From Octopus vulgaris (Eukaryota): a DNA stretch of 64,000 nucleotides. Shown here one piece after another: positions 15,355 to 59,325 of the stretch. A program made the translations under genes and the position numbers. The stretch covers positions 60,698,001 through 60,762,000 of the forward strand of contig OX597822.1 in the NCBI GenBank assembly GCA_951406725.2, written 5' to 3'. The first letter of the stretch is position 1. Each line of letters opens with the position of its first letter. The notes beneath the pieces are model-generated. The model did not search any database and was not told the DNA's origin. It saw nothing but the letters and a program-made list of their open reading frames with translations.

Positions 15355-15552
15355 CTGGCACCCATGCTGCTGGCATATAAAAAGTATCCACTACACTCTC
15401 AGAGTGGTTGACATTAGGAAGGGCATCCAGCTGTAGAAATCATGCCAAATCAGATTGGAACCTGGTGCAGCTCCCCAGCTTACCAGTTTCCGGTCAAACC
15501 ATCCAACCCATGCCAGCATGAAAAACAGGCATTAAATAATGATGATGATGAT
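15355..15552 (+). mobile_element. RTE-associated 3' tail repeat
   Basis: Same motif set ending in (gat)n. Confidence 0.75.
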
Positions 15553-16555
15553 TTCACAACATTATTTACATTTCTCTTTCACAATGTATAATGTGATCAT
15601 CTACAGTTTATTAATGGAGTGCATTAGCATATTGCATTTCATTAGACAGCAATATCTAAGTCTCTAAAACTACATTATTCAATGTGTTCTTCCTTTCTTT
15701 AAAATGACAGGACATGATATGAGGTGGGGTTTGGCTGCAACTCCTAGCAGGTTGCACAGCAAGTTAGAAGCTCCCTTTTTGTTTGGTGTGTACAATAAAT
15801 GCCTACACACTACTTATTGTGTATATGTTGTTTGGTATGAATAATGTGCAAGTTGTTTGGTGTATATATTTGTATATGTTATTTATCATCATCATCATTT
15901 AATGTCCATTCTCCATGCCACTATGGGCTGGACAGTTTAACAGAAGCTGGCCAGCTGGAGAGCTACCTGGGCACCATTTTGTCTCTTTTAGCAAGGTGCC
16001 TTTACGTGGTACTGGTACAGGCGCATTTTACATGGCACCAACACAGGCACTCTTATGTGACACTGGCATGGGTGCTTTTACATGGCACCAGCACCCACAA
16101 GCCCACAAAACTAGGAGCTCTCAGCTGAGAGAAAGCCATATAGGAGATGCCTGTATGTATGGACAGCCACAAGTTTACTTAGTTTGACATGACTTCTCAA
16201 GCAGAGCAAACTGCCAGAAGTCTTGGTCCCTTACTCATTGGTGTGTAAGTGGGTATACATATTTTTGGTGTGACCATTGTTTAGTATGTAAATGTGTATT
16301 TTGTTTGGTTAGTATGTGTGTGCATGTTGTTCAGTCTGCCTAAAGTGTGGTGTATATGTCATTTGGTGTATACAATGTGTACATATATTGTTTGATGTGT
16401 ATAATGTCAGTATATGCTTTTTGATGTGTTCATATATATTGCTTGGTGTGCATATGTTGTTAGCATGTATGCATCCTGTTCGGTGTATATAATGTGTGTA
16501 TATGTGTATATAGTGGCAAAAAGGCAAAGCAAATAGAAATATACACACACAAATA

Positions 16556-16915
16556 GACACCCCATAAAACATCGTTTTATGTTTATTCTAACTTGTAAAG
16601 GTTTATATTTTTTATTAATTATTATTTTACATTTCAGGTTCTATATGTGAACCTCTTGACAGGACCCTTCTCTTTGCTAAGAGAAGTGTGGAGTATAACC
16701 CTCGTTGCAAGGCCTCTGACATAGCAGAACAAATTTATGTCAGTCCCAGAACAGATGTCAGGCATCTCCACAAACTTGGTTACTATGGCAGAACAACAAG
16801 AAGGAAGCCACTTCTTCAACCAGCCAACATCAAGCAGAGAAAAGATAGAACTAGTGTGATGGTTGAGAGGTCACTAGCATTTTGAGACACTGTCATATTC
16901 TCTGATGAGTCTAGA
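16556..16915 (+). mobile_element. Tc1 transposase fragment
   Basis: LHKLGYYGRTTRRKPLL...KQRK followed by VIFSDES. Confidence 0.75.
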
Positions 16916-17332
16916 TGCTGTTGTGTAAGGATATATATGTATGTAAGGTAAAAACTAAGAGAAAACAGTCATTCTAAACATAAATGAAACATTTATTTTA
17001 TACATTAAATGTCTAAATATCTGTGTTGTTAAGTTTATAATTTATCAGAGTACCTTCAAGAATGTATAGTTACAAGATATATATTACAAATAAGAAAATG
17101 GAGAAACACATTAGTTGGGTTATCAGCTTTAGGATATTAGAATGTTGTCTTATTTAATTAACAAAACTACAACCACAATAACATACATATATACAGTATA
17201 AAATTCAATACATTTAAGATAAGAATACAAACAGTTATTAAAAAAACATTAATATAAATTGTTAACTATTTGTATTCTTATCTTAAATGTATTGAATTTT
17301 ATACTGTATATATGTATGTTATTATGGTTCTA

Positions 17333-17508
17333 GTGTGTACAAAGGGCAGGGACGTGATCGACGTGGGCTGATGACCTACGCCTACCGGGAATTCCTCGTT
17401 CACGGGGTTGGTTCCAGGCCCCGATCCCTATCACGGGAGGTGATTCAGAGGTTTCCCGACCCTCTCAGGCCGGGGGGAGATGCGCCCGCTGATACCTCCA
17501 GTGTAGCG
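17333..17508 (-). pseudogene. 18S (SSU) rRNA fragment, 3' region, dispersed copy
   Basis: Reverse complement reads cgctacactg...gatagggatc...gaacgaggaattcc...acgtccctgccctttgtacacac, conserved eukaryotic SSU motifs. Confidence 0.92.
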
Positions 17509-17632
17509 AAGGTATCTCCAGGGATACAGGCATCCAGTAACAGGACCTCCGTAATGCTATGATGGACCGTGAAGTCTGGCGTAACACAGTAAATTCCATT
17601 GTCTCGACCACAGTCGAACAATGATGATGATG
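17509..17632 (+). mobile_element. RTE-type LINE extreme 3' end with (ATG)n tail
   Basis: Encodes DLRNAMMDREVWRN (RTE C-terminal DR..WR motif) then (atg)n and the second TSD copy. Confidence 0.75.
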
Positions 17633-17929
17633 ATGGTTCTAGTTTTGTTAATTAAATAAGACAATATTTGTCTTAATAATATACTAAAGCTGATAAACTA
17701 ACTAATGTGTTTCTCCATTTTCTTATTTGTAAAATAAATTAATGGTAAAATATTTCTTTACCTTCACCCATTTAATACAATAAGTGAGTTCATTGCATTG
17801 CAATTAAAAACACTTGTGTATTAATAATTTAGGTAGTATACCAACAGTATATTGGATAAGTATTATCCCTTAGTAGGTTGGATCCACAACCCCTAACTTA
17901 TTTGGTATATATATATATATACACACACA

Positions 17930-19448
17930 CACCCAGAACCACGCTAATAGCTTAAGAGTGAAATTTAGGATTTCTCAGGTTTCTGAGAATCGATTTTAAT
18001 AAAACTTTTCCCAGCCGGTTTGCACACTATGCAACACCATTGTTATGTTTTGATTATTCTGTGTAACATCCTTTCTGTTTTTACTTCAGATTCTTCAGCT
18101 TTTGAATGAAAATAGCCCATTAGGCATTTTTTTTCTCCAGAAAACGAAAGGTAATGATACATATTAAGCATACATTGAGTATATATTTAACAGAAAACCA
18201 TAACAATATTATAACATTTATTGACATAATGAATCATTTAGCCATGTGAGCACCATTTCGACAGATAACTTCAAAAACCCTATTAATCATGGAATCTGTC
18301 AATTTCTTAATAGTAGCAGGTTGGACTACCTTTGCTGCAGCTTTGATGATCGCCCATAAGACATCTTTCAATGTAAATTGGTGTCCATTGGCATAAACAT
18401 CTTGTTTAATGATGGACTAAAGATTTTTGATAGGGTTGAGATCCAGAGATGCTGGTGGCCAAGCTATCAACCTTTCACCTTGTATGATGTAAAGGCCTAG
18501 TAATGTTTGGGTGGTCCTAGCAGAGTGAGAGGGAGTGTTGTCATGCATGAATACGAGATTCCTTAAAAGCGACAGCAGTATGTCATCGAGCCAGGGATCC
18601 AAGACCTCCTTCAGGAGATTGCAGTAGGTGACTGCAGTCACTTTAACCCCTTCAGGCACCCTGACTGAGCCAACAAGTCTATCTCCAATGGTACCAGCCC
18701 ACAACATGACTCCTCCACCCTATTCTTGACATCGTAAATGTTGGTGTCGCTCGTCTCCAAAACAGACCCAAACATTTGCCTAAACTATCAGGTCCATTAA
18801 GGGTCGCCCAGGTGTCATCAGTGAACAGAACACAACTCATGTCTAATGTCATGTACTTTTGTGCCCATTGAAGCCTCTCCAACTCCTGTGACATGGCATT
18901 AAAGGAAGCAGTTTCAAGAGTTCTTGCATGGAAGCCATGGTCCCAGGGATGCGATTTCTGGTGGTTTTCAGTACATGAGAAAGTTCAGAAATACATGAGG
19001 AAGTCCAGTGAAAATGGCTTTGTTTGTTTCTCCAGGTTTCCCATGTAACTTATGGCCAATATTCCTTAAGGTCCCACAATTGGATCATTTCTTCCGTGGC
19101 GAAGGGTTCTTCAAGAATCGTCTAACCATGTCCACATGACAACCTAGCTTCTCAGCAATGATATGAAGAGAGGTCCCTTTAGCACTTTCCTTGATGACGA
19201 CAGACTTTACTTCATCATTAATGCTTTTTCCACTCAATGTTCTCATAAAGGAAAGATACTATTAGCGCGGTTCACCCAAAAAACGAAGAATCTGAAATAA
19301 AAAAGAAAGGACGTTACACAGAATAATAAAAACATAACAATGGTGTTGCCATAGTGTGCAAACCAGCTGGGAAAAATTTTATCAAAATCAATTCACAGAA
19401 AACCAAGAAATCCTAAATCTCACTAAGCTATTAGCTTGGTTCTAAGTG
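17930..19448 (-). mobile_element. Full-length decayed Tc1-family DNA transposon
   Basis: About 180-bp TIRs; broken transposase with VLFTDD, FMHDNTPSH and WPPASLDLNPIKNL motifs. Confidence 0.9.
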
Positions 19449-19726
19449 TATATAGGCAGACACACACACACAGAGTCACTATGTTTCCATTGATAAACTA
19501 ATAGTAGTGGCTTAGTGGATATGAACATTACTATCCTTAATTTAGAAATATAAATCTCTAGTTCAAACCTAGTGTGGAATTATGTACGTATCTTAGAATA
19601 AAGGTACTTGATAATGATTGGAGATAGAACCAATCAAAATACTGTGTAGATATGCATAATGTAAATATGAGATTAATAGTCTGTAAAAATTATCTTCTGA
19701 ATCTATTTAAGGTACTGCTAACAAAC

Positions 19727-20029: not shown

Positions 20030-22027
20030 TGACTACATCATCATGTGCTAGAAGGAATAACTTGACAGTGTTAGAAGTTATAACAATAGTATTAGAAAGT
20101 GCATGGGAGGAGAGCCTGTCCAATATGAACCTGACAGAGGGGTTGGCTAACTGAATCAACTGTAGCTTAGCAGATAAAGCAATTAAGGACATGAAGACAA
20201 GGAAAGCCTCTGGCCCATTGAAAGTCACTGCTGAGATGCTTAAAATCTTTGGTGAGGTGGGGTGGGATATAACCTGGTCACCCATATAGTTAATCAGGCT
20301 GTCCACAAGGGAATCATACCCAATGGTTGATGTAGCAGCATTATAAGTCAACTGCTACAAAGACAAAGGTAATGCCCTAGACAGAAATAATTACAGAGGT
20401 ATCAAATTACTGGACCAGGTGATGAAAATTGCAGAAAGGGTCTTGGCTCAATTAATTAGAAAGAGAGTTAGCATAGATGAGATGTAGTTTAAACTTGTGC
20501 CAGGGAGAAGCACCACCAATGCTATCTTTCTGGTAAAGTAACTGCAGAGGAAATACTTGGCCCAAAATAAACCGCTGTTTCTGGTTTTTGTTAACATGAA
20601 GAAAGCCTTTGACAGGTTTCCTGTTCTCTGTTCCCTTATCTAGAGGGATAGATGAGTGGTTTGTGAGAGCTGTATGAGCCATGTACAAGAATGTTGTTAG
20701 TAAGGTGAGAGTTGCCAAGGAGTTTAGTGTACAAGTAGGAATCCACCAGGATTCAGTCCTTAGCCCCCTCTTATTTATCATGGTCCTCCATGCCATAACG
20801 GAGGAATTTAAGACTGGCTGCCCTTGGGAGCTCCCCTATGCTGATGACTTTGTTCTTATTACTGAATTACTACCAGAACTAGAGAAGAAATTTCAGGTAT
20901 GGAAGCAAGGTCTGAAATCAAAGGGCCTTAGAGTTAATTTAGCAAAGACCAAAGTATTGATAAGTAGGAAAACAGGCAAATTGCAGATCCCTTCAGGGAG
21001 ATAGCCCTGCTCAATATGTAGAGATGTCAGGAGAAACTCCATAAGATGTACCCAGTGCAAGTTATGGACACATAAGGGGTGTAACAGTATCAATGAACGA
21101 CTAATGGAAAAGGTAACCTTTGCATGTGGCAGATGTGCAGGTACATTAAACACTAAGAATGTACAAAAAATAGACTCCCTCATATGCCAGTGAGGATCCC
21201 TAGAAGTAGTAGACAGTTTCCATTACTTAGATTACCAAGTTAGTAGTGGGAGTGGTTGTTCCAAAAGCATAGCTGCTAGGATAAGAATAGGTTGGGCAAA
21301 GTTCAGAGAGCCTCTCCCTCAGACTGAAAGGCAAATTGTATGATGCCAATGTACTAACAGCTATGCTACATGGCAGTGAGACATGGGCTGTGGCTATTGA
21401 GGATATGCAAAGATTTGAAAGAAATTAAACCAGTATGCTTCGTTGGATGGATAATGTCAGTGTGGATATATGACAGTATAAATGATTTGAGAGAAAAACT
21501 GGGTATACGTAGCATCAGATGTAGTGTGCAACAGAAAAGATTGCACTGGTATAGCTATGAAATGCATAGGAATGAAGATAGTTGCATCAAGAGGTGCCAA
21601 TTTCTAATTGTATGGGGAACATGTGGAAAGGATAGACCCAGGAAGACATGGGACAAAGTGGTGAGAAAGGATTTACAGACACTAGGACTCAAAGAAGGGA
21701 TGACAGGGAACTGAGACTCTTGGCAGTTTGCTGTGCTTGAAAAGACACATCAAGCTAAGTAAAAGCATGGTTGCCCTTGCATATAGGCTTGCCTCCTGCA
21801 ACCCTTTCCAGCTGAGCATCCCTAGTCTTGTGGGCTCGTTAGTGCTGGTGCCACATAAAAAGCACCCAGTACACTCTGTAGAGTGGTTGGCATTTGGAAG
21901 GGTATCCAGCTGTAGAAACCATAGCAAAACAGACATGGAACCTGAAGAGCCCTTAAGCTGGTCAGCTCCTGTCAAAACCATCCAACCCATGCCAGTATGG
22001 AAAATGGGCATAAAATGATGATGATGA
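20030..22027 (+). mobile_element. RTE LINE, 5'-truncated and degenerate
   Basis: NYRGIKLL, GIHQDSVLSPLLF, YADD, GKDRPRKTW; shared 3' tail with (gat)n. Confidence 0.9.
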
Positions 22028-24489: not shown

Positions 24490-26563
24490 TGTCGGCTATA
24501 GCCTGGTCACTCGTATAGTTAACCAGAGATACACGAAGCAGTCATACCCAATGACTGGTGTAGCAGCACTATAGTCAATTGCTACAAAGATAAAGGTGAT
24601 GCTTTAGATACAAATAATTACAGAAGTATCAAGTTGTGGACCAGGTAATGAAGGTCACGGAGAGGGTCATAGCCCAACTAATTAGGGAGAGAGTCAGTTT
24701 AGATGGGATGCAGTATGGGTTCGTGCCAGGGAAAAGCACCACTGATGCTGTATTTGTGGTAAGACAGCTGCAGGAGAAATACCTAACCAAAGATAAACCT
24801 CTGCACCTGGCTTTCGTTGACATGGAGAAAGCCTTTGACAGAGTCCCCAGATCCCTTATCTGGTGGTCAATGAGGAAACTAGGGATAGATGAATGGTTAG
24901 TGAGAGCTGTGCAAGCCATGTACAGGGATGCTGTCAGTAAGGTGAGGGTTGGCAACGAGTACAGTAAAGAATTCCAGGTAGAGGTCCACCAAGGTTCAGT
25001 TCTCAGCCCCCTCCTATTTATCATAGTCCTCCAGGCAATAACAGAGGAATTCAAGACAGGATGCCCCTGGGAGCTCTTTTATGCTGATGACCTTGCTCAA
25101 ATTGTTGAGTTACTACCAGAACTCGGGGAGAAGTTTCAGGTGTGGGAACAAGGATTAGAATCGAAGGGCCTTAGAGTCAACCTAGCTGAAACCAAAGTCC
25201 TAATAAGTAGGAAGGCAGGCAAACCACAAATCCCTTCAGGTAGATGGCCCTGCTCGATCTGTAGAAAAGGCGTAGGTAGAAACTCTATAAGATGTACCCA
25301 GTGTAAGCTATGGACACATAAGAGGCACAGCAATATCAAAGGAAGGCTAACTGGGAAGATAGTTTTTGTATGTGGCATATGCTCAGAAGCAATAAACACT
25401 GAAAATGTGCAGAGAACAACTTCCGCCACATTCCAGGGAGAAAAACTAGAAGTAGTTGATAGCTTCTGTTACCTAGGTGACCAAGTCAGTAGCGGGGGAG
25501 GGTGTGCTGAAAGTGTAGCTGCTAGAATAAGAATAGCTTGGGCAAAGTTCAGAGAGCACTTACCTCTGCTGGTGACAAAGGGCCTCTCGCTCAGAGTAAA
25601 AGGTAGGCTGTATGACATATGTGTACGAACAGCCATGCTACATAGCAGTGAAACATGGGCCATGACTGCTGAGGATATACATAAGCTCACAGGGAATGAA
25701 GCCAGTATGATCTGATGGATGTGTAATGTCAGTGTGCATACTCAACAGAGTGTAAGTACCTTGAGAGAAAAGTTGGACCTATGAAGCATCAGATGTGGTG
25801 TGCAAGAGAGATGACTGTGCTGGTATGGTCATGTGGCAAGAATAGATGAGGATAGCTGCATGAAAAAGTGCCACACCCTAGCGGTTAAGGGAACCTGTGA
25901 AAGAGATAGACCCAGGAAGACCTGGGATGAAGTGGTGAAGCATGACCTTCGAATATTAGTGGACTTTTGGAAATATGCTGTGCTTGAGAAGACCCGGCAA
26001 GCCAAGTGAGACCATAACCACGTGGCCTATACTAGGGGTGTAACCAGCCACTTATGCATACCTTTCCTTCATTGGACACTAAACTCTGCTTGCAAAGACC
26101 TGTTGAGGTAAATGAAATCGAAATCAAATTCAATGACTGGCATCCGTGCTAGTGGAGCACTAAGAGCATCATCCGAGCGTGATCGTTGCCAGAGCAGCTA
26201 ACTGGCTTCTGTGCCGGTGGCACGTAAAAAGTACCATTCAAGCATGACCATTACCAGCATCGCCTTACTGGCACATGTAAAAACATTCGAGCGATGTCGT
26301 TGCCAGTGCCGCTGGACTGGCTCCTGTGCAGGTGGCACATAAAAAACACCGTTTGAGCATGGCCGTTGCCAGTACTGCCTGACTGGCATGTAAAAGCACC
26401 CACTACACTCTCGGAGTGGTTGGCGTTAGGAAGGGCATCCAGCTGTAGAATTCTGCCAGATCAAGATTGGAGCCTGGTGTAGCCATCTGGTTCGCCAGTC
26501 CTCAGTCAAATCATGCAACCCATGCTAGCATGGAAAGCGAATGTTAAATGATGATGATGATGA
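24490..26563 (+). mobile_element. RTE LINE, 5'-truncated, with a 359-aa RT ORF and an embedded Cys/His finger
   Basis: QYGFVPGKST, FVDMEKAFD, HQGSVLSPLLF, YADD, YLG; 3' UTR ends in (gat)n. Confidence 0.92.
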
Positions 26564-29085: not shown

Positions 29086-29443
29086 ATACCTCGACAATAT
29101 TTCAAATGTTGCCACATCTATGCCAGTACACTCGACTGAACGCCAAAACATTGACAGAACGAGAACAGTGAAAAAGTTTCAAAGAAAATAGTAATGCAAT
29201 ACGAGAGTATTGCTTTCCAGTAAAGGATAGCCCGTGAGGGTAAAATTACTGGAAAGCAATACGAGAGTATTGCTTTCCAGTAAAGGATAGCCCGTGAGGG
29301 TAAAATTACTGGAAAGCAATACTCTCGTATTGCATTACTATTTTCTTTGAAACTTCTTCACTGTTCTCGTTCTGTCAACGTTTTGGCGTTCAGTCGAGTG
29401 TACTGGCATAGATGTGGCAACATTTGAAATATTGTCGAGGTAT

Positions 29444-41887: not shown

Positions 41888-42145
41888 CTGCGAATATTGT
41901 CTGGCATCACATTCTGGAAAATAAAGTAATTATGGTATTAGCCTTCCTGAAGTACCCAAGATTCATTAATGAGCAATGGTGAGGGCACCTTTGGGGCCAC
42001 ATACCCATCTTCATTATGTAGTTGTAATATGGAAGAAGAAGGAGGAGGAGGAGGTCATCATCATTATCATTCACAACAACAGAATCAATATGACATAAAC
42101 TGATAGAAATCACTCTATATCTCAGCTTTTGAGTATTTAACTTAC

Positions 42146-42315
42146 CCACACAAGCTTCATGAACAAGTTTTACAATGGAAAAATGGGCAGACAACTGTTC
42201 AACTGTGAACTGTTCTTCTCTAGCAAATTGCACAGCATATGTGTAAAGGTTGAGTAGAATTTTTTCTTTGTGTTGTTCGGAGGAATTACAGAGATTGAAA
42301 ATTTCAGCAAGGATA
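42146..42315 (-). CDS. CFAP119: CFAP119 coding exon 4 (ILAEIFNL...LLNLYTYAVQFAREEQFTVEQLSAHFSIVKLVHEACV)
   Basis: gtctttcag|t ... gtgg|gtaagt; matches CCDC189 LDLF.HALIFCRQQGFSLEQTSA...LHKAC. Confidence 0.93.
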
Positions 42316-43224
42316 CTGAAAGACAGAGATTTGAAAAAGAAAATATATTATCAGACCATCTTTCAAAACAAATTATGCAATCCAAAAAATTTGTTACTGA
42401 TTTTATTTAAAATTCACTAAAACTTTTGTGATATACCAGGAGTTGTATCTTGGCTTGCTTTATTTACAAAGTAAAGACCCCCACCATCCCCACCCACCAC
42501 CCCTTGGTCATGAATGACCATGGGAGTGCACATAGAAAGTACCCCTCTGAAGCACAAGTCTGGGTAAGATAGTTTGTGAAAGACCAGCAGTCGCCCATGC
42601 ATACCAGTCTCTCCTTTCCATGCCACCAATTTTGTCCAAGAGAAAGACAAAGGCCGATACAATTTAGCACCAGTAATGTAGCAATTTATTTCTACAGCTG
42701 AGGGAACTGGAGCAACCTGAAATAAAGTGTCTTGCTCAAGAACACAACACACAGCCCCATCTGGGAATCAAACTCACAACCTAATGATTGTAAGCCCAAT
42801 GAGTCATGGACCTTCACTCATAAACCTTATTTAGGTACACATATATCCTAAAAATTTTGAAGGAAGAAAAAGATACAAGTATATTATGAATATAATCATC
42901 AATTGATGTCTGTTTTCCATACTGGCATTAGATGTTTCGTTTTTGGACTTGGTTTGCAAGATTCTTTATGTGAGTTTGTGTGTTGAAGCATATTTTGCTG
43001 TGTCTGGGGAGTGTATTATTTAATACACTCACTGTTAAAGTTTCCACTCATTTACTTATTTATTTTTTCTGGAAAAACCTTACCAGTGAGTGTGTTAAAT
43101 AATAAGATACTAAAAGAGAATGACGTACCCCAGACACAGCAAAATTAGTTAGATGGTTTGACAGGAAGTGGAAAGCCATAGAACTGCATCAAGCTCCAAT
43201 GTTTATTTTGGCATGGTTTCTATG

Positions 43225-43580
43225 GCTGGTTTCAGGGAAACAAGCACCATGGAACAAATATTTAATCACAAAGTCTTTGGGGGATAATACCTAGAACATC
43301 AAAAAGAATTATACATGTCTTAAATGATGTCTAGAACATCAAAGAGAATTATACATGCCTTCAATGATTTCTAGAACATCAAAGAGAATTGTACAAGTCT
43401 TCAATGATGTCTAGAACATCAAAGAGAATTATACATGTCTTCAATGATTTCTAGAACATCAAAAAGAATTACACATGTCTTCAATGATTTTTTAAAAAGT
43501 CTCTGACGAGGTTTGGCATGAAGTGCTAAGGGCCACAATGAAAAAGTACAACATCAGCCCATAACTGATTGAAGTCACCA
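43225..43580 (+). mobile_element. RTE RT fragment containing a 5 x 40-bp tandem array (43291..43490)
   Basis: ctagaacatc recurs at 43291, 43331, 43371, 43411 and 43451; flanks encode YLEHQKELY and DEVWHEVLRATMKKYNI. Confidence 0.75.
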
Positions 43581-48823: not shown

Positions 48824-51800
48824 GAAGCGTTCTGTATTTTTCAGATTTCAAACAATTGATCATAAATATTTTTTATTCACTATTGCAACTACTCTGCAAC
48901 TAGCTACCGTGGCTTTTTTTCACTATCACTGCACTATACACCTGCAATACCACTTACACGACATCACCACTACTCCTGTAACTACTATCACTTTATCACC
49001 ATTGTCACGGCACCATCATAACTATCACTGTCAAAACCCCACCATTACAATTACATTGCCACTGCCGTGTCCATGTAACAATCTCACTACTAACAGTCAC
49101 AACACCGCTACAACCACTACACCCACACTGCCACTACCACCACAAATACCACTATTACAAAATCAACACTACACTATACTCTTCTGTCACCACCACTACC
49201 ACCACCACTCTAATGTCTACATTAATTGCTCTACCAATGGAAAGATCTGCCAGTTCATTGAACGAGGCACCTATTGTAAGTCTGTTGAATATACTTTATT
49301 TTCTTCTTAAAACACAGTGGGGTACTACTTAAGAAGAGTGGTCCCGGTGTGCGCACTCGCGTACTCGCGCATCCGCGCTAGCTAGTCGTGACTAGTCGAT
49401 CCTACAACGACTACCTAGCAAAATAAATAAAACACAAAATAAATAATTTTGGTAATCTTTCGTTTCTAGTAGACCTTTCCGTCGATTTCCGTAAAAAAAC
49501 TTCTTTTTTTTTTTTACATATGGACTTGCGGCAACTTTTGAAGTAATGAGAGCGAAAGAGACTAAGAGAAATCGAGGCGATCTTTCGTTTGTAGTAGCAC
49601 GTTTCCGTCGATGATTTCTGTAAAAAACTTTTATTTTTTTTACATATGGCCTTGTGGGAACATTTGAAGTAATGAGAGCGAAAGAGACTAAGAGGAAGCG
49701 ATTTTATGACGAGGGAATTTCTTTTGAAGTTATCAAAGCATTGATGTACATGTGTGTATGTGTGTGTGTTTGATGGGGTGTGGGAGACAGACAGTATGTT
49801 GTGTAAGTGAAGTGCTTCTGTTAGTGTGTGTGAAGAGACAGAGTAATGTGTGAAAGAGAGAGATAACTGAAATTTTTTACTCGGTGTATGTGTATATGTA
49901 TGTATGCATGTATGTGTGTGTGTGTATGTATGTGTGTATGTATCTATGTATGTGTGTGCGTATGTATGTATGTATGGCCGATTCAGTGTACACTGAATCG
50001 GCCATACATACATACACACATACACACACACACATACTTACACACACACATACATAGATACATACTCACACACACATACATGCAGACATACATATATACA
50101 TACACCGAGTAAAAAATTACACTGAATCGGCCATACATACATACATACACACACATACATAGATACATACACACACATACATAGATACATACACACACAC
50201 ACATACATGCATACATACATATACACATACACCGAGTAAAAAATTTCAGTTATCTCTCTCTGTCTCTTCACACACACTAACAGAAGCACTTCACTTACAC
50301 AACATACTGTCTGTCTCCCACACCCCATCAAACACACACACACACACACACACATGTACATCAATGCTTTGATAACTTCAAAAGAAATTCCCTCGTCATA
50401 AAATCGCTTCGTCTTAGTCTCTTTCGCTCTCATTACTTCAAATGTTCCCTCAAGGCCATATGTCAAAAAAATAAAAGTTTTTTTACGGAAATCGACGGAA
50501 ACGTGCTACTACAAACGAAAGATCGCCGAAAGCGATTGTATGACGAGGGAAGTTCTTTTGAAGTTACCGTGCATGGGAGCATTGATGTACATGTGTGTGT
50601 GTTTTATGGGGGTGTGGGACACAGAAAGTATGTTGTGTAAGTGAAGTGCTTCTGTTAGTGTGTGTGAAGAGACAGAGAGAATAATGTGTGAAATTTTTTA
50701 CTCGGTATATGTGTATATGTATGTATGCATGTATGTGTGTGTGTATGTATGTGTGTATGTATGTATGGCCGATTCAGTGTTTACATTATTTCGAGTTAAA
50801 ACGAAAGATTACCTTTGCCTGTTTATGTAACGGTCTGCTATGTAGAAAATAATGAGGTTGACTCAATGGAATAATGACAGTGATCGAAGATATAGACAAA
50901 TTTTTTTTTTAATCGTTATACATGCCTTGTCGACTGCTACTGTGCAGCCTTAATGTCTCTGTTGATGTGATGATGGTGAAATGGTAAGAAAAAGACGGGA
51001 GAGTTATAAAATGAGGAGGAGATATTCTTCTCATGAGAAAAGAGTTGCATGCAAAGGAAAAAAAAGTTAATAGTCTATAGATGTGCACAGAAACTGGGTG
51101 CAAGCATGCATATATATGCATGTGTAAACATTGTGTTGTGCAGCAAAAGGAACGAACAGTACAAATGTGTAACGAAAAGTGACAAAATCCTATTGGTAAT
51201 GTCCTGTGTGAAAAGTCTATGCTGAAAAGTGAGAAAAGGTTAGTTCTCTTGGTTGGGTAGCTGTCCTAAGTGTTGCATTTATGTATGGCAACTGTTTCCC
51301 TCGTGGATCTGTGCATCGGGTTGCAGTACATGTGGAATGTAATTAGTGTGTGTCCATTGAATCGGTGACTTCATTCCTTTCGTGTTGTGTTGGGCATGTG
51401 ACGATGGCGTTGTGAAAGTTCGTGTCCTATAATTCTTGTTGATGCGACTGGCACGGACTGTAATTGTTTTCAAGAGTTCATGCGATGCGAAAGCAGTAAG
51501 TCTTTGAAGTCGAGCTCACCAAATGTAATGGATAAGGTAACGAAGACTGCAGTTCTGTGGCTCCGGGGTCAGCAATTGTGGCAGGGTTGTTGTGTTCGAA
51601 TCACGTTGTGGGTAACCAGTTGTATCGTTGTGGTTGATGTATTCTAATAACGTCTCTCTGCCGATGCTCGATGCTGACAATACAGAATGTGAAGGTGGCA
51701 TTGTCACTTCTTCATTTCGGCCGAGTGTAGAAAAAGAGGTATATCACTGTGACACCTATTGTTTTCGTGTGGTGTCTGTGTAGACGCGGAAAAGTTTTAA

Positions 51801-56220: not shown

Positions 56221-59030
56221 ATAATAATAATAATAATAATAATAATGAAATTATTGTATACAGTGCTCAGGTGCACCACAACTTGTTGGACAGTGCATAT
56301 AAAGCACGTACAAATGTCTGGAAAGCGAAGAATGCATGAGTCAGATACATGCTTGTGTGTGTATGGAGGGGAGAAAATCAGGTGTAGTGTTGGCGAATCT
56401 CAGAAAGCATGGAAGTTTTGAAGGATGCAGTGCTCCGACAACTAACAACTGATGCCGGCAGTTTGTTCCATGCTTCAGCAACTCTCAGCGTGAAAAAATG
56501 TTTCCTGAAAGTCATGGGAGCTGTGCTGTTTTCTGACTTTGTAAATATGTCCACGGGTGTTAGATGGGTGGAGTTTGAAAAGGTGCTCAGAGTTATTGTT
56601 TGTACGATGGTTGATAATTTTATGGGTGTCTGCCAAGTCAGTTGCCAGACGTCGGAGTTTCAATGTGTCCATGCCCAGGGAAGTAAGGCGTTCAGAATAT
56701 GGCAAATGCCTGATGGAGGGTATTCTTTTGGTTACACGTCACTGAACGGCTTCCAGACGATTGATATCCTGGGCAAGATAGGGGTTCCAGACCGGTGATG
56801 CAAATTCCAGGCGAGGTTTTACCATAGCTATATAAAGCCGCAGATAGATAGTCAGAGAGCGGCTCACAAAGTTTTTGGTGAGTGATGCCAAGACACCCTC
56901 AGCCTTCTTGACAATTTTACCGATGTGTTTTGTCCAATGCAAATCACTGTCGACAATAACACCCAGGTCACGTTCACATGAAGACTTTTTGAGACTAGTG
57001 TTGTGGAGGGAGTAGGTGGACGCTGGGTTTCTCCTCCCAAAATGCATAGTGGTACATTTGTCCACAGCCAGCTTGAGTTGCCAGTCTATGATCCACTGCT
57101 GCATTGTGTCCAGGTCTGCTTGCAATAGAGATCTATAGTGTACAGGATCTGACCTCTTTATTTCGAGGTACAGCTTGATGTCATCTGCATATTTCAGCAC
57201 TGTGGAATTCTTTAAGTTGGCATCTATGTCATTAACATATGCAACAAATAAAAGGGGGCCAAGAACAGATCCCTGTGGTACACCAGATGTTATCTCATAG
57301 GGCAAAGATTGCTGTCCTAGAACTGTGACAACCTCTTTTCGGTCGAAAATAAAGGACTTCAACCAGTTATAGAGTTCGTCTCTTACGCCCAACGCAGAGA
57401 GCTTCACCATAAGTCTTTTGTGTGGCACAGAGTTAAAAGCCTCAGCAAAGTCCAGGTAAACAAAATCCACCCAGGATCCGCGATCAGTGATTTGGGTAAC
57501 GTCCTCAAGAAACTCGATGAGTTGATTACAGCAGCTGGAGTTAGGAATAAATCCAAACTGTGATGGCTGGATGAGGCTGTGAGACTTCCAGAAGTTCCAG
57601 AGGGTTTCTCTGATACAGGATTCCATCAGTTTGGCGATGCAGTTAGTAAGACTAATGGGGCGATAGTTGACAGGCGATGTGCGGTTGCCTTTTTTGAACA
57701 GAGGGATAACACTGGCAGTTTTCCACTGTTCTGGAGTAACACCATTGTCAAGACAAAATTGGAAGAATAGAGAAAGTTGGCTTAGAAGAAAGTACCCACC
57801 GCGTTTGAGAAGTACGTATATAACACCATCGAGACCAGGAGAGGCATAGTTGCGTTTATTCTTAAGGTGGCGTTGTAGCATTGCTGGTGTAAATTGCATA
57901 GTAGATATAGAGTCCGATGTCAGTGGTGATGAAGTTGGAACATTTTGGTCTTCGACAGTAAAGATGCCGGCATAACATCCAGCAATGATTTCTGCACATT
58001 CTTCGGGATTGCCAGTAATCTGTCCTGTGTGGAGATTGCGAAGGGGACCAACTGGAGAGTGGGGTCTCTGCTTTGAGTGCACATACTTCCAGAACACTTT
58101 GCTGTCAGGGTTAGTTGCAATGCGTTGTTCAAATTCAAGCACTGCCTTTTTTGTCACCTGCTTGAGGTGGTTGGCTGACCTATTGCGCTTTTTCCTGTTG
58201 CCCTCTGATTTGTGCAATTTGTATTCCTGTTCAGCATTACGGCGTTCTTTCCTGGCAAGTCGGACTGCTGCAGTCTCCCAAATTGTACTATTGTGTGTTT
58301 TTTTGTGCTTGCGTGGTACTGATGCTGCACATGCTGCACATGCCGCCCATATTGAATTCAGAATGTTCTGGAGTATAGTGTCCACATCTTCAGAGGCATA
58401 AAATTCGAGCCAGTTTGGGCGTTGCAGCTCAGTTCAATAAGAGCTCCAGTCTGCTTTATTCCAGTCAAAGCGGGCAGTCTGAAGATGGTTGTGTTTTTTG
58501 TTACAACCAATCAGAGATAAGTCGACCATGATCATGGAATGATCAGAGTTACCTAAAGGTTCTTCAGTAGTGACACTAATGATTGTTTCAGGAGATGCAG
58601 TAAGTAGCAGATCCAAAGTGTTGTTGCCCCTTGTTGGGGAAGTAACAACTTGGAACCAATTTGAATTCAGCACCAGTTCAAGGAAATCGTCTGCACTTTG
58701 TGGCCAACGGAAGGCCTCCCAGTCAATCTCAGGGAAATTGAAGTCGCCTGCAATATAAACATACACGGCTGTTTTCATGGTAGCAGCTCTGAGGATATCA
58801 AAAAGCTGTGTGTCTTGACGATAATTTGGGGGGGGGGGGGGGCCGGTAAACGACTCCAAGCAGAAGTGTTGACGTGGTCATGTGTATACTGCAGAAAAAT
58901 ACTTCCTGCTGAGATTGGTTCAAATCATTACTTTAACTCGTGTCCATTGTCCAGAAATATCTGTGACTTCTTCAGCGACACTTCGTTTTCGTGTGTGTTC
59001 TTGCACCACTTCAAAGGTTATTAGGTTTTG
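56221..59030 (-). mobile_element. CR1-type LINE, most of ORF2 (APE endonuclease + RT), disrupted
   Basis: AGDFNFPEIDW, PTRGNNTLDL, SDH (endonuclease); NYRPISLT, GVPQGSVLGPLLF, YADD (RT, ORF 56739..58385); (att)n tail. Confidence 0.95.
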
Positions 59031-59049: not shown

Positions 59050-59325
59050 AGATGGATGGATGAATGGATGGATTGGATTGGATTAGATTGGGTGGCTGGA
59101 TGGATAGGTCTGGTGGTTGATGTATATATATATGTATGTATATGTTGTTTATACATTATGTAGATGTCCTGTTAGACCGATCATACCATGATAGACCGGA
59201 TGGATGGATGGATTGGATTGGATTGGATTGGGTGGATAGATGGATGGATAGGTCTGGTGTTTGATGTGTATATATTTGTATATATATGTTGTTTATACAT
59301 TATGTAGATGGTCTGTTAGACAGAC
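59050..59325. repeat. Tandem duplication (about 140 bp) containing GGAT/GGATT microsatellite
   Basis: ggataggtctggtg.ttgatgt...gttgtttatacattatgtagatg occurs twice. Confidence 0.7.

Follow-up and report, generated by a model that had tools for sequence, protein, structure and literature searches.

An antisense 18S rRNA fragment joined to the end of a likely RTE-type LINE within one target site duplication in Octopus vulgaris

How did a fragment of small-subunit ribosomal RNA come to lie, in reverse orientation, beside the truncated end of a LINE retrotransposon within a single target site duplication (TSD) of the Octopus vulgaris genome? The window considered here is the whole stretch of 64 kb that was analysed (contig OX597822.1, positions 60,698,001 to 60,762,000, forward strand), and all positions refer to it. 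The segment 17000-17900 was compared with four contig sets (X1, X2, X5 and X6), representing 4 of 24 sequencing runs; X2, X5 and X6 are the three DNA runs, and X2 was covered to about 80%.

Structure of the insert and its target site

The insert is bracketed by two identical copies of an 11-mer that is found nowhere else in the window, in agreement with the 11-bp TSD that the initial annotation had placed at 17324 and 17633. The probability of a chance match is about 4e-6 when 20 offsets are allowed, and 2e-4 when only the 8 letters not common to the tail are counted. Because the first three letters of the TSD are also those of the tail unit, we give its length as 8-11 bp. The last two nucleotides of the left copy are assigned to the 18S piece as well, since 18S-like pieces from the DNA runs begin at 17333 (three of the nine listed, which then diverge from the window) or at 17332 (one of the nine). 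This 2-nt overlap between 18S and target is weak evidence, as it is expected by chance about once in 16-24 cases (4-6%).

Both the 18S piece and the LINE end are enclosed by this one TSD and neither has its own, the best inner repeats being 4 nt long as against 11 nt for the outer duplication; the claim of a single insertion event is supported by this arrangement. The 18S piece runs opposite to the LINE, and the truncated 3' end of the RNA adjoins the 5' TSD. GC content is 62% in the 18S segment and 21-26% in the flanks. The chimeric 18S/LINE structure inside one TSD is real.

Table 1. Features of the insert and its host repeat (positions in the 64-kb window)
Feature	Position	Strand	Remark
Left TSD copy, original target	17324..17334	+	Last 2 nt double as the opening 2 nt of the antisense 18S piece
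18S rRNA fragment, truncated at both ends, antisense to the LINE	17333..17508	-	Rfam RF01960 match; at least 5 private transitions
5-nt filler	17509..17513	+	Unlike the LINE family sequence and the Rfam 18S consensus
Alternative to the filler: 3 nt together with LINE letters from which 1 nt is deleted	17509..17513	+	
5'-truncated 3' end of a high-copy, likely RTE-type LINE	17514..17632	+	Last 36 codons, then (TGA)n
Right TSD copy	17633..17643	+	First 3 nt (ATG) overlap the tail repeat
Palindromic AT-rich repeat that took the insertion	17077..17739	.	354 bp without insert; left arm represents the empty site

Read on the minus strand, the left arm of the surrounding palindrome aligns unbroken to the right arm minus the insert, with mismatches at 2 of 11 positions across the target, so that its proposed role as a record of the empty site holds. 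In the DNA runs, the letters that would turn the left arm into the TSD 11-mer account for 95-100% of depth at position 17176 and for about 10-30% at 17170, so that the target is a normal allele of the palindromic repeat. Summed depth in the DNA runs is very high over the palindromic element and over the sequence rightward of it (17740-17900). This depth points to a repeat family, and both segments likely belong to such families, candidates being MITE- or foldback-like elements.

Identity and decay of the two parts

The 18S segment was recognised by a minus-strand match to Rfam family RF01960 (102 bits, E 1.6e-28), whose high-confidence part covers 17334-17508 and model positions of about 1496-1668; the whole piece corresponds to about 1496-1669. 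It is the only rRNA-family row in the window among 68 rows at E<=1; a gathering-mode Rfam scan with fast filters returned 0 matches and missed it. The reading as 176 nt of antisense SSU rRNA is thus confirmed, two of the 176 nt being also part of the TSD. The piece spans what we take to be helices h41-h43 and the 3' strand of h28. Far from the Rfam consensus in sequence, it keeps the helices, with about 11 pairs marked as favourable substitutions (counted by eye), and so derives from a working but divergent 18S. In the Rfam CS line the final columns of the match are unpaired, so in this one case the RNA was truncated where the consensus turns single-stranded.

The three DNA runs cover the 18S part at summed depths of 5,000-276,000, which identifies the piece as host-type. 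A foreign 18S, from food or a parasite, was considered and ruled out by the high depth in three DNA runs under three organism labels. The window differs from the 18S found in reads at no fewer than five positions (17364, 17377, 17378, 17443 and 17467; 40 of 68 rows listed). Each of the five listed is a C>T or G>A change on the side of the window, and four of the five lie at CpG positions, the decayed CpGs being 17364, 17467 and, jointly, 17377-17378; the CpG bias has a p of about 0.005, calculated post hoc from the rows listed only. In X1, contig record 2 (162 nt) matches 17333-17494 with 0 differences, placing the private allele in reads, and the contigs on both flanks are also without differences (records 1, 2 and 8 cover the piece and both flanks); X1 may be the assembly's own sample, which limits the weight of this exact match. 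The private transitions and the exact allele in X1 argue against rDNA pulled into the assembly. The 18S piece is a decayed genomic copy of host-type 18S.

Under the clock implied by PMC13282606, a distance of 0.065 corresponds to 18 My. With 1-5 changes in 174 nt, which are minimum counts, this clock would date the insert very roughly to 2-8 My ago.

Between 23 and 30 contigs per DNA run cover position 17443. Nine listed low-depth 18S-like contigs (over 17332-17505) are unlike the window copy at about 6-12% of sites. The octopus genome may commonly contain scattered 18S pseudogene pieces.

The boundary of the LINE part was set by family contigs whose junction with the window is at 17514 and which extend upstream of it as LINE coding sequence (54 in X2, 31 in X5, 46 in X6 and 1 in X1). 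Because they join there and not at 17509, we assign 119 nt to the LINE and treat 17509-17513 as filler. The initial annotation had described the 18S as fused directly to about 124 nt of an RTE end; the likely RTE-type tail stands, but the LINE part is shorter and the 5-nt filler lies between the two.

The tail translates into the C-terminus of a LINE protein with APE and RT domains, with 94% identity to P0002 over 90% of 40 aa; the three matches found have identities of 94%, 86% and 78%. The 36 codons contain one in-frame stop, and (TGA)n starts at the stop codon, as it does in all five loci listed out of 13 taken. A search from P0004 yielded 230 relatives, the long ones of about 1,040 aa with an APE endonuclease and RT. 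The P0004-linked proteins of 985-1060 aa (PF14529/PF03372 plus PF00078, on contigs of 3.2-4.8 kb) are relatives and not the host's own full element. No C-terminal CCHC knuckle was detected by regular expression in the 46 proteins of at least 1000 aa. RTE-clade LINEs have a single ORF of about 1,000-1,100 aa with an APE endonuclease and RT and no C-terminal CCHC knuckle, and they end in a short, microsatellite-like tail, as (TGA)n is. On this architecture, the tail family is likely an RTE-type LINE.

Summed depth on the tail reaches 0.6-3.2 million in the DNA runs, as against 26 on unique flank in X2; these values are not copy numbers, but the family is clearly large. Within the 64-kb window we found no other copy of the tail or of the 18S piece beyond (ATG)n runs. 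Other LINE RT remnants occur at 20365-21714 and 24618-25715 (+) and at 56739-58877 (-), with 24-35% identity to the tail-family proteins. Inverted 57-nt arms at 15493-15549 and 15885-15941 end in (ATG)n and are likely two SINE or LINE tails lying head to head.

Origin of the chimera

We propose, with a probability of roughly 0.6, that one insertion event gave rise to the insert through twin priming, in which a reverse transcriptase of likely RTE type copied two different RNAs. Twin priming was among the mechanisms named at the outset and now leads them. The LINE endonuclease would have cut both strands about 11 nt apart in the AT-rich palindromic repeat. The bottom-strand end would have paired with the (UGA)n tail of the LINE via ATG and been extended by 119 nt, and the top strand's 3' end would have formed a 2-nt pairing in a single-stranded part of 18S rRNA just 3' of a helix. 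Extension of the top strand by 174 nt would have written antisense 18S on that strand, so that priming on abundant sense rRNA would yield the antisense orientation without any antisense transcript. Host end-joining may then have linked the two cDNA ends, adding 5 nucleotides, and the inserted copy would have decayed, mostly at CpGs. The insert is probably a one-off, a single dead by-product without function.

Twin priming is supported by the opposite orientation of the two parts, by the 3' truncation of the RNA, by the truncation where the consensus is unpaired and, weakly, by the 2 nt in common with the target. The 11-bp TSD fits the peak of 10-12 bp for RTE TSDs (PMC4245944, PMC6007223) as well as the 10-20 bp of TSDs seen with LINE inversions (PMC4245944). 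The 3-nt overlap between tail and target and a TSD that begins with A also fit animal RTEs, for which both have been described (PMC6007223). Against it, there is no T-run at the position 10 nt upstream of the TSD, P-10 being G. The twin-priming model predicts microhomology between the two cDNAs (PMC2912911), and the filler found at the inner junction in its place counts against it. Against it also, 5' inversions in human cells were nearly confined to human L1 (PMC4245944), the RTE and L2 chimeras of PMC4476161 were of the template-switch type only, no contig listed bridges either junction, and the letter of the window at 17443 is not seen in the three DNA runs. From the sequence of a single copy, an RNA template is in any case indistinguishable from a DNA template.

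Within the part of the LINE RNA that was not copied, at 16-23 nt upstream of 17514, the letters CGCACACT resemble the junction end of the 18S piece at 17500-17508 (CGCTACACT in sense orientation). The uncopied LINE RNA could have tethered the two cDNA ends; this idea is post hoc, and the 8 pairs with a bulge may be due to chance. A flanking source for the filler was tried and rejected: a 7-letter minus-strand match, comprising the filler and one base on each side, occurs at 17759-17765, but 6-30% of controls reach the same.

Alternatively, end-joining at the truncated 5' end of the RTE copy may have copied or ligated rDNA or free rRNA cDNA, in which case the orientation would be random. We regard this as unlikely. 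The inner filler and the 2-nt outer overlap would be ordinary end-joining scars, the nine low-depth 18S-like contigs listed suggest that scattered rDNA pieces are common, and extra 5' sequence is common in non-L1 LINEs (PMC4245944). For R2, snap-back or extra-template junctions, including junctions with U6, have been reported (PMC11371274). Weak points of such a capture are that the piece lies wholly within mature 18S and ends where the consensus turns unpaired, and that the 5' extras of ZfL2-2 came largely from flanking DNA (PMC4245944).

A rather more doubtful proposal is that, by template switching or after RNA ligation, the enzyme left the RTE RNA during first-strand synthesis and went on to copy an antisense 18S transcript. 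Untemplated letters are expected at a template-switch jump, which favours it, but a rare antisense RNA would have to be chosen over sense rRNA, which is far more abundant. According to the available text of PMC4476161, L2 and RTE form chimeras by template switching alone.

The chimera might also have been copied from a pre-formed source: an RTE stub would first have landed, in reverse, within an rDNA unit or an 18S pseudogene, and a read-through transcript would then have been retrotransposed once or many times. We consider this very unlikely. We know of no promoter that the antisense 18S piece would provide. None of the 32 contig pieces listed spans either junction (there were 15,411 further pieces and 465 further loose ends), the listed contigs at 17514 run into LINE coding sequence, and the letter of the window at 17443 has no depth in X2, X5 or X6; contigs drop rare paths and a filter takes out some of the rRNA-like ones, so that a missing 17443 letter or joint is not equivalent to absence or to an empty allele. 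The junction pattern gave 0 matches in metagenome contigs, where octopus DNA is not expected. In its favour, the filler would simply be an older 5' junction, and 28S-derived SINEs have been proposed (PMC5786205). The notion in the initial annotation of an 18S-derived, SINE-like family finds no support in the 17443 letter or in the junctions of the contigs listed. A small octopus retroposon family with an antisense-18S head and an RTE tail, of twin-priming origin and amplified from a transcribed source copy, is very improbable; were it true, it would stand as the first SINE-like element derived from 18S.

Separate insertion of the two parts at the same place, or a misassembly, would account for the lack of a spanning piece among the contigs listed, yet we give these as little credence as a pre-formed source. 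There is no inner TSD, and the TSD copies match each other in full, whereas the left arm departs from them at 2 of 11 positions. A misjoined rDNA read would carry rDNA letters and not CpG-decayed ones, and X1 contains the decayed allele with both flanks free of differences. Among the contig joints listed, none crosses 17335-17643 as an empty site would.

Relation to known chimeras and neighbouring features

Twin priming on two RNAs, the reading that we prefer, has close precedents. Doucet et al. (2015) described inverted U1, U2, U5 and U6/L1 chimeras formed via twin priming, which accounted for 7 of 30 retrotransposon-associated snRNA copies (PMC4476161). The octopus insert shares with them the single TSD, the opposite orientations, a 3'-truncated RNA at the 5' TSD, truncation in a single-stranded stretch, a 5'-truncated LINE and, perhaps by chance, letters common with the target; it differs in that its partner is 18S rRNA, which is also truncated at its 5' end, in that the LINE is RTE-type and in its invertebrate host. 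According to Law and Burns (2026), 5S, U5 and tRNA/L1 chimeras are mostly antisense, and of 18 28S/L1 chimeras 83% are sense and 17% are not (PMC13174262). These also combine an RNA fragment, rRNA in the 5S and 28S cases, with a truncated LINE in one TSD, with twin priming proposed for antisense cases, and their 28S pieces of 50-482 nt bracket the octopus fragment in size; 18S is not mentioned in the text and six supplementary files of that study. Because inverted RNA/L1 chimeras have been published for U5, 5S, tRNA halves and some 28S, the antisense orientation is not exceptional, and the earlier statement that such chimeras are normally sense-sense was overstated.

Other systems resemble the insert in part. 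Among the tailless retropseudogenes of Noll et al. (2015) are two 5'-truncated 18S cases in human (PMC5322556). They likewise arose by internal priming on single-stranded parts of structural RNAs, but stand alone and were primed at the first nick, whereas in the octopus insert a LINE tail at the other nick accompanies the RNA copy. SINE28 and RTE-tailed SINEs (Kojima 2018, PMC5786205) join an rRNA-derived part or an RTE-derived 3' end to their units, features that are both present here, but they form high-copy, near-identical units and the octopus insert is known from one copy; the term '18S' has 0 occurrences in the available text of that paper. An RTE-clade LINE is already known from Octopus vulgaris, RTE-2_OV, whose features include a zinc finger and about 600 nt of 3' UTR (PMC9115989). 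Our tail family has no 3' UTR, its tail beginning at the stop codon, and is therefore likely distinct from RTE-2_OV, from which it is set apart by description only.

We found no report of an 18S/LINE or an inverted RNA/RTE chimera in the literature, a search that lay outside most subscription papers. Relative to the chimeras known from the available sources, the use of 18S as partner and of an RTE-type LINE in a mollusc is new, and the overall kind is already published. If twin priming holds, an RTE-type RT is able to start synthesis from the second nick, and to do so on a foreign RNA, which the available sources describe for mammalian L1 and not for RTE. Its very high-copy tail family would make the octopus genome convenient for counting such chimeras and for testing how they form. 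Being one decayed copy without likely function, the insert is of interest only to retrotransposon specialists.

Several other features were noted in the window. An exon at 42141-42320 (-) belongs to a CFAP119/CCDC189-like gene (PF14769), with 98% identity to an Octopus sinensis protein and 88% to one of O. bimaculoides (4 matches, all Octopus). Long inverted repeats at 17929-18110 and 19271-19449 surround broken transposase-like frames (ORFs 18417-18984, -), presumably a decayed Tc1/mariner element, and 16640-16940 looks like another such decayed transposase-element fragment. Young tandem duplications are present at 29196-29322 (60-nt units, 100% identical), 43291-43490 (five 40-nt units), 49455-49701 (two of 126 nt) and 59058-59321 (two of 144 nt).
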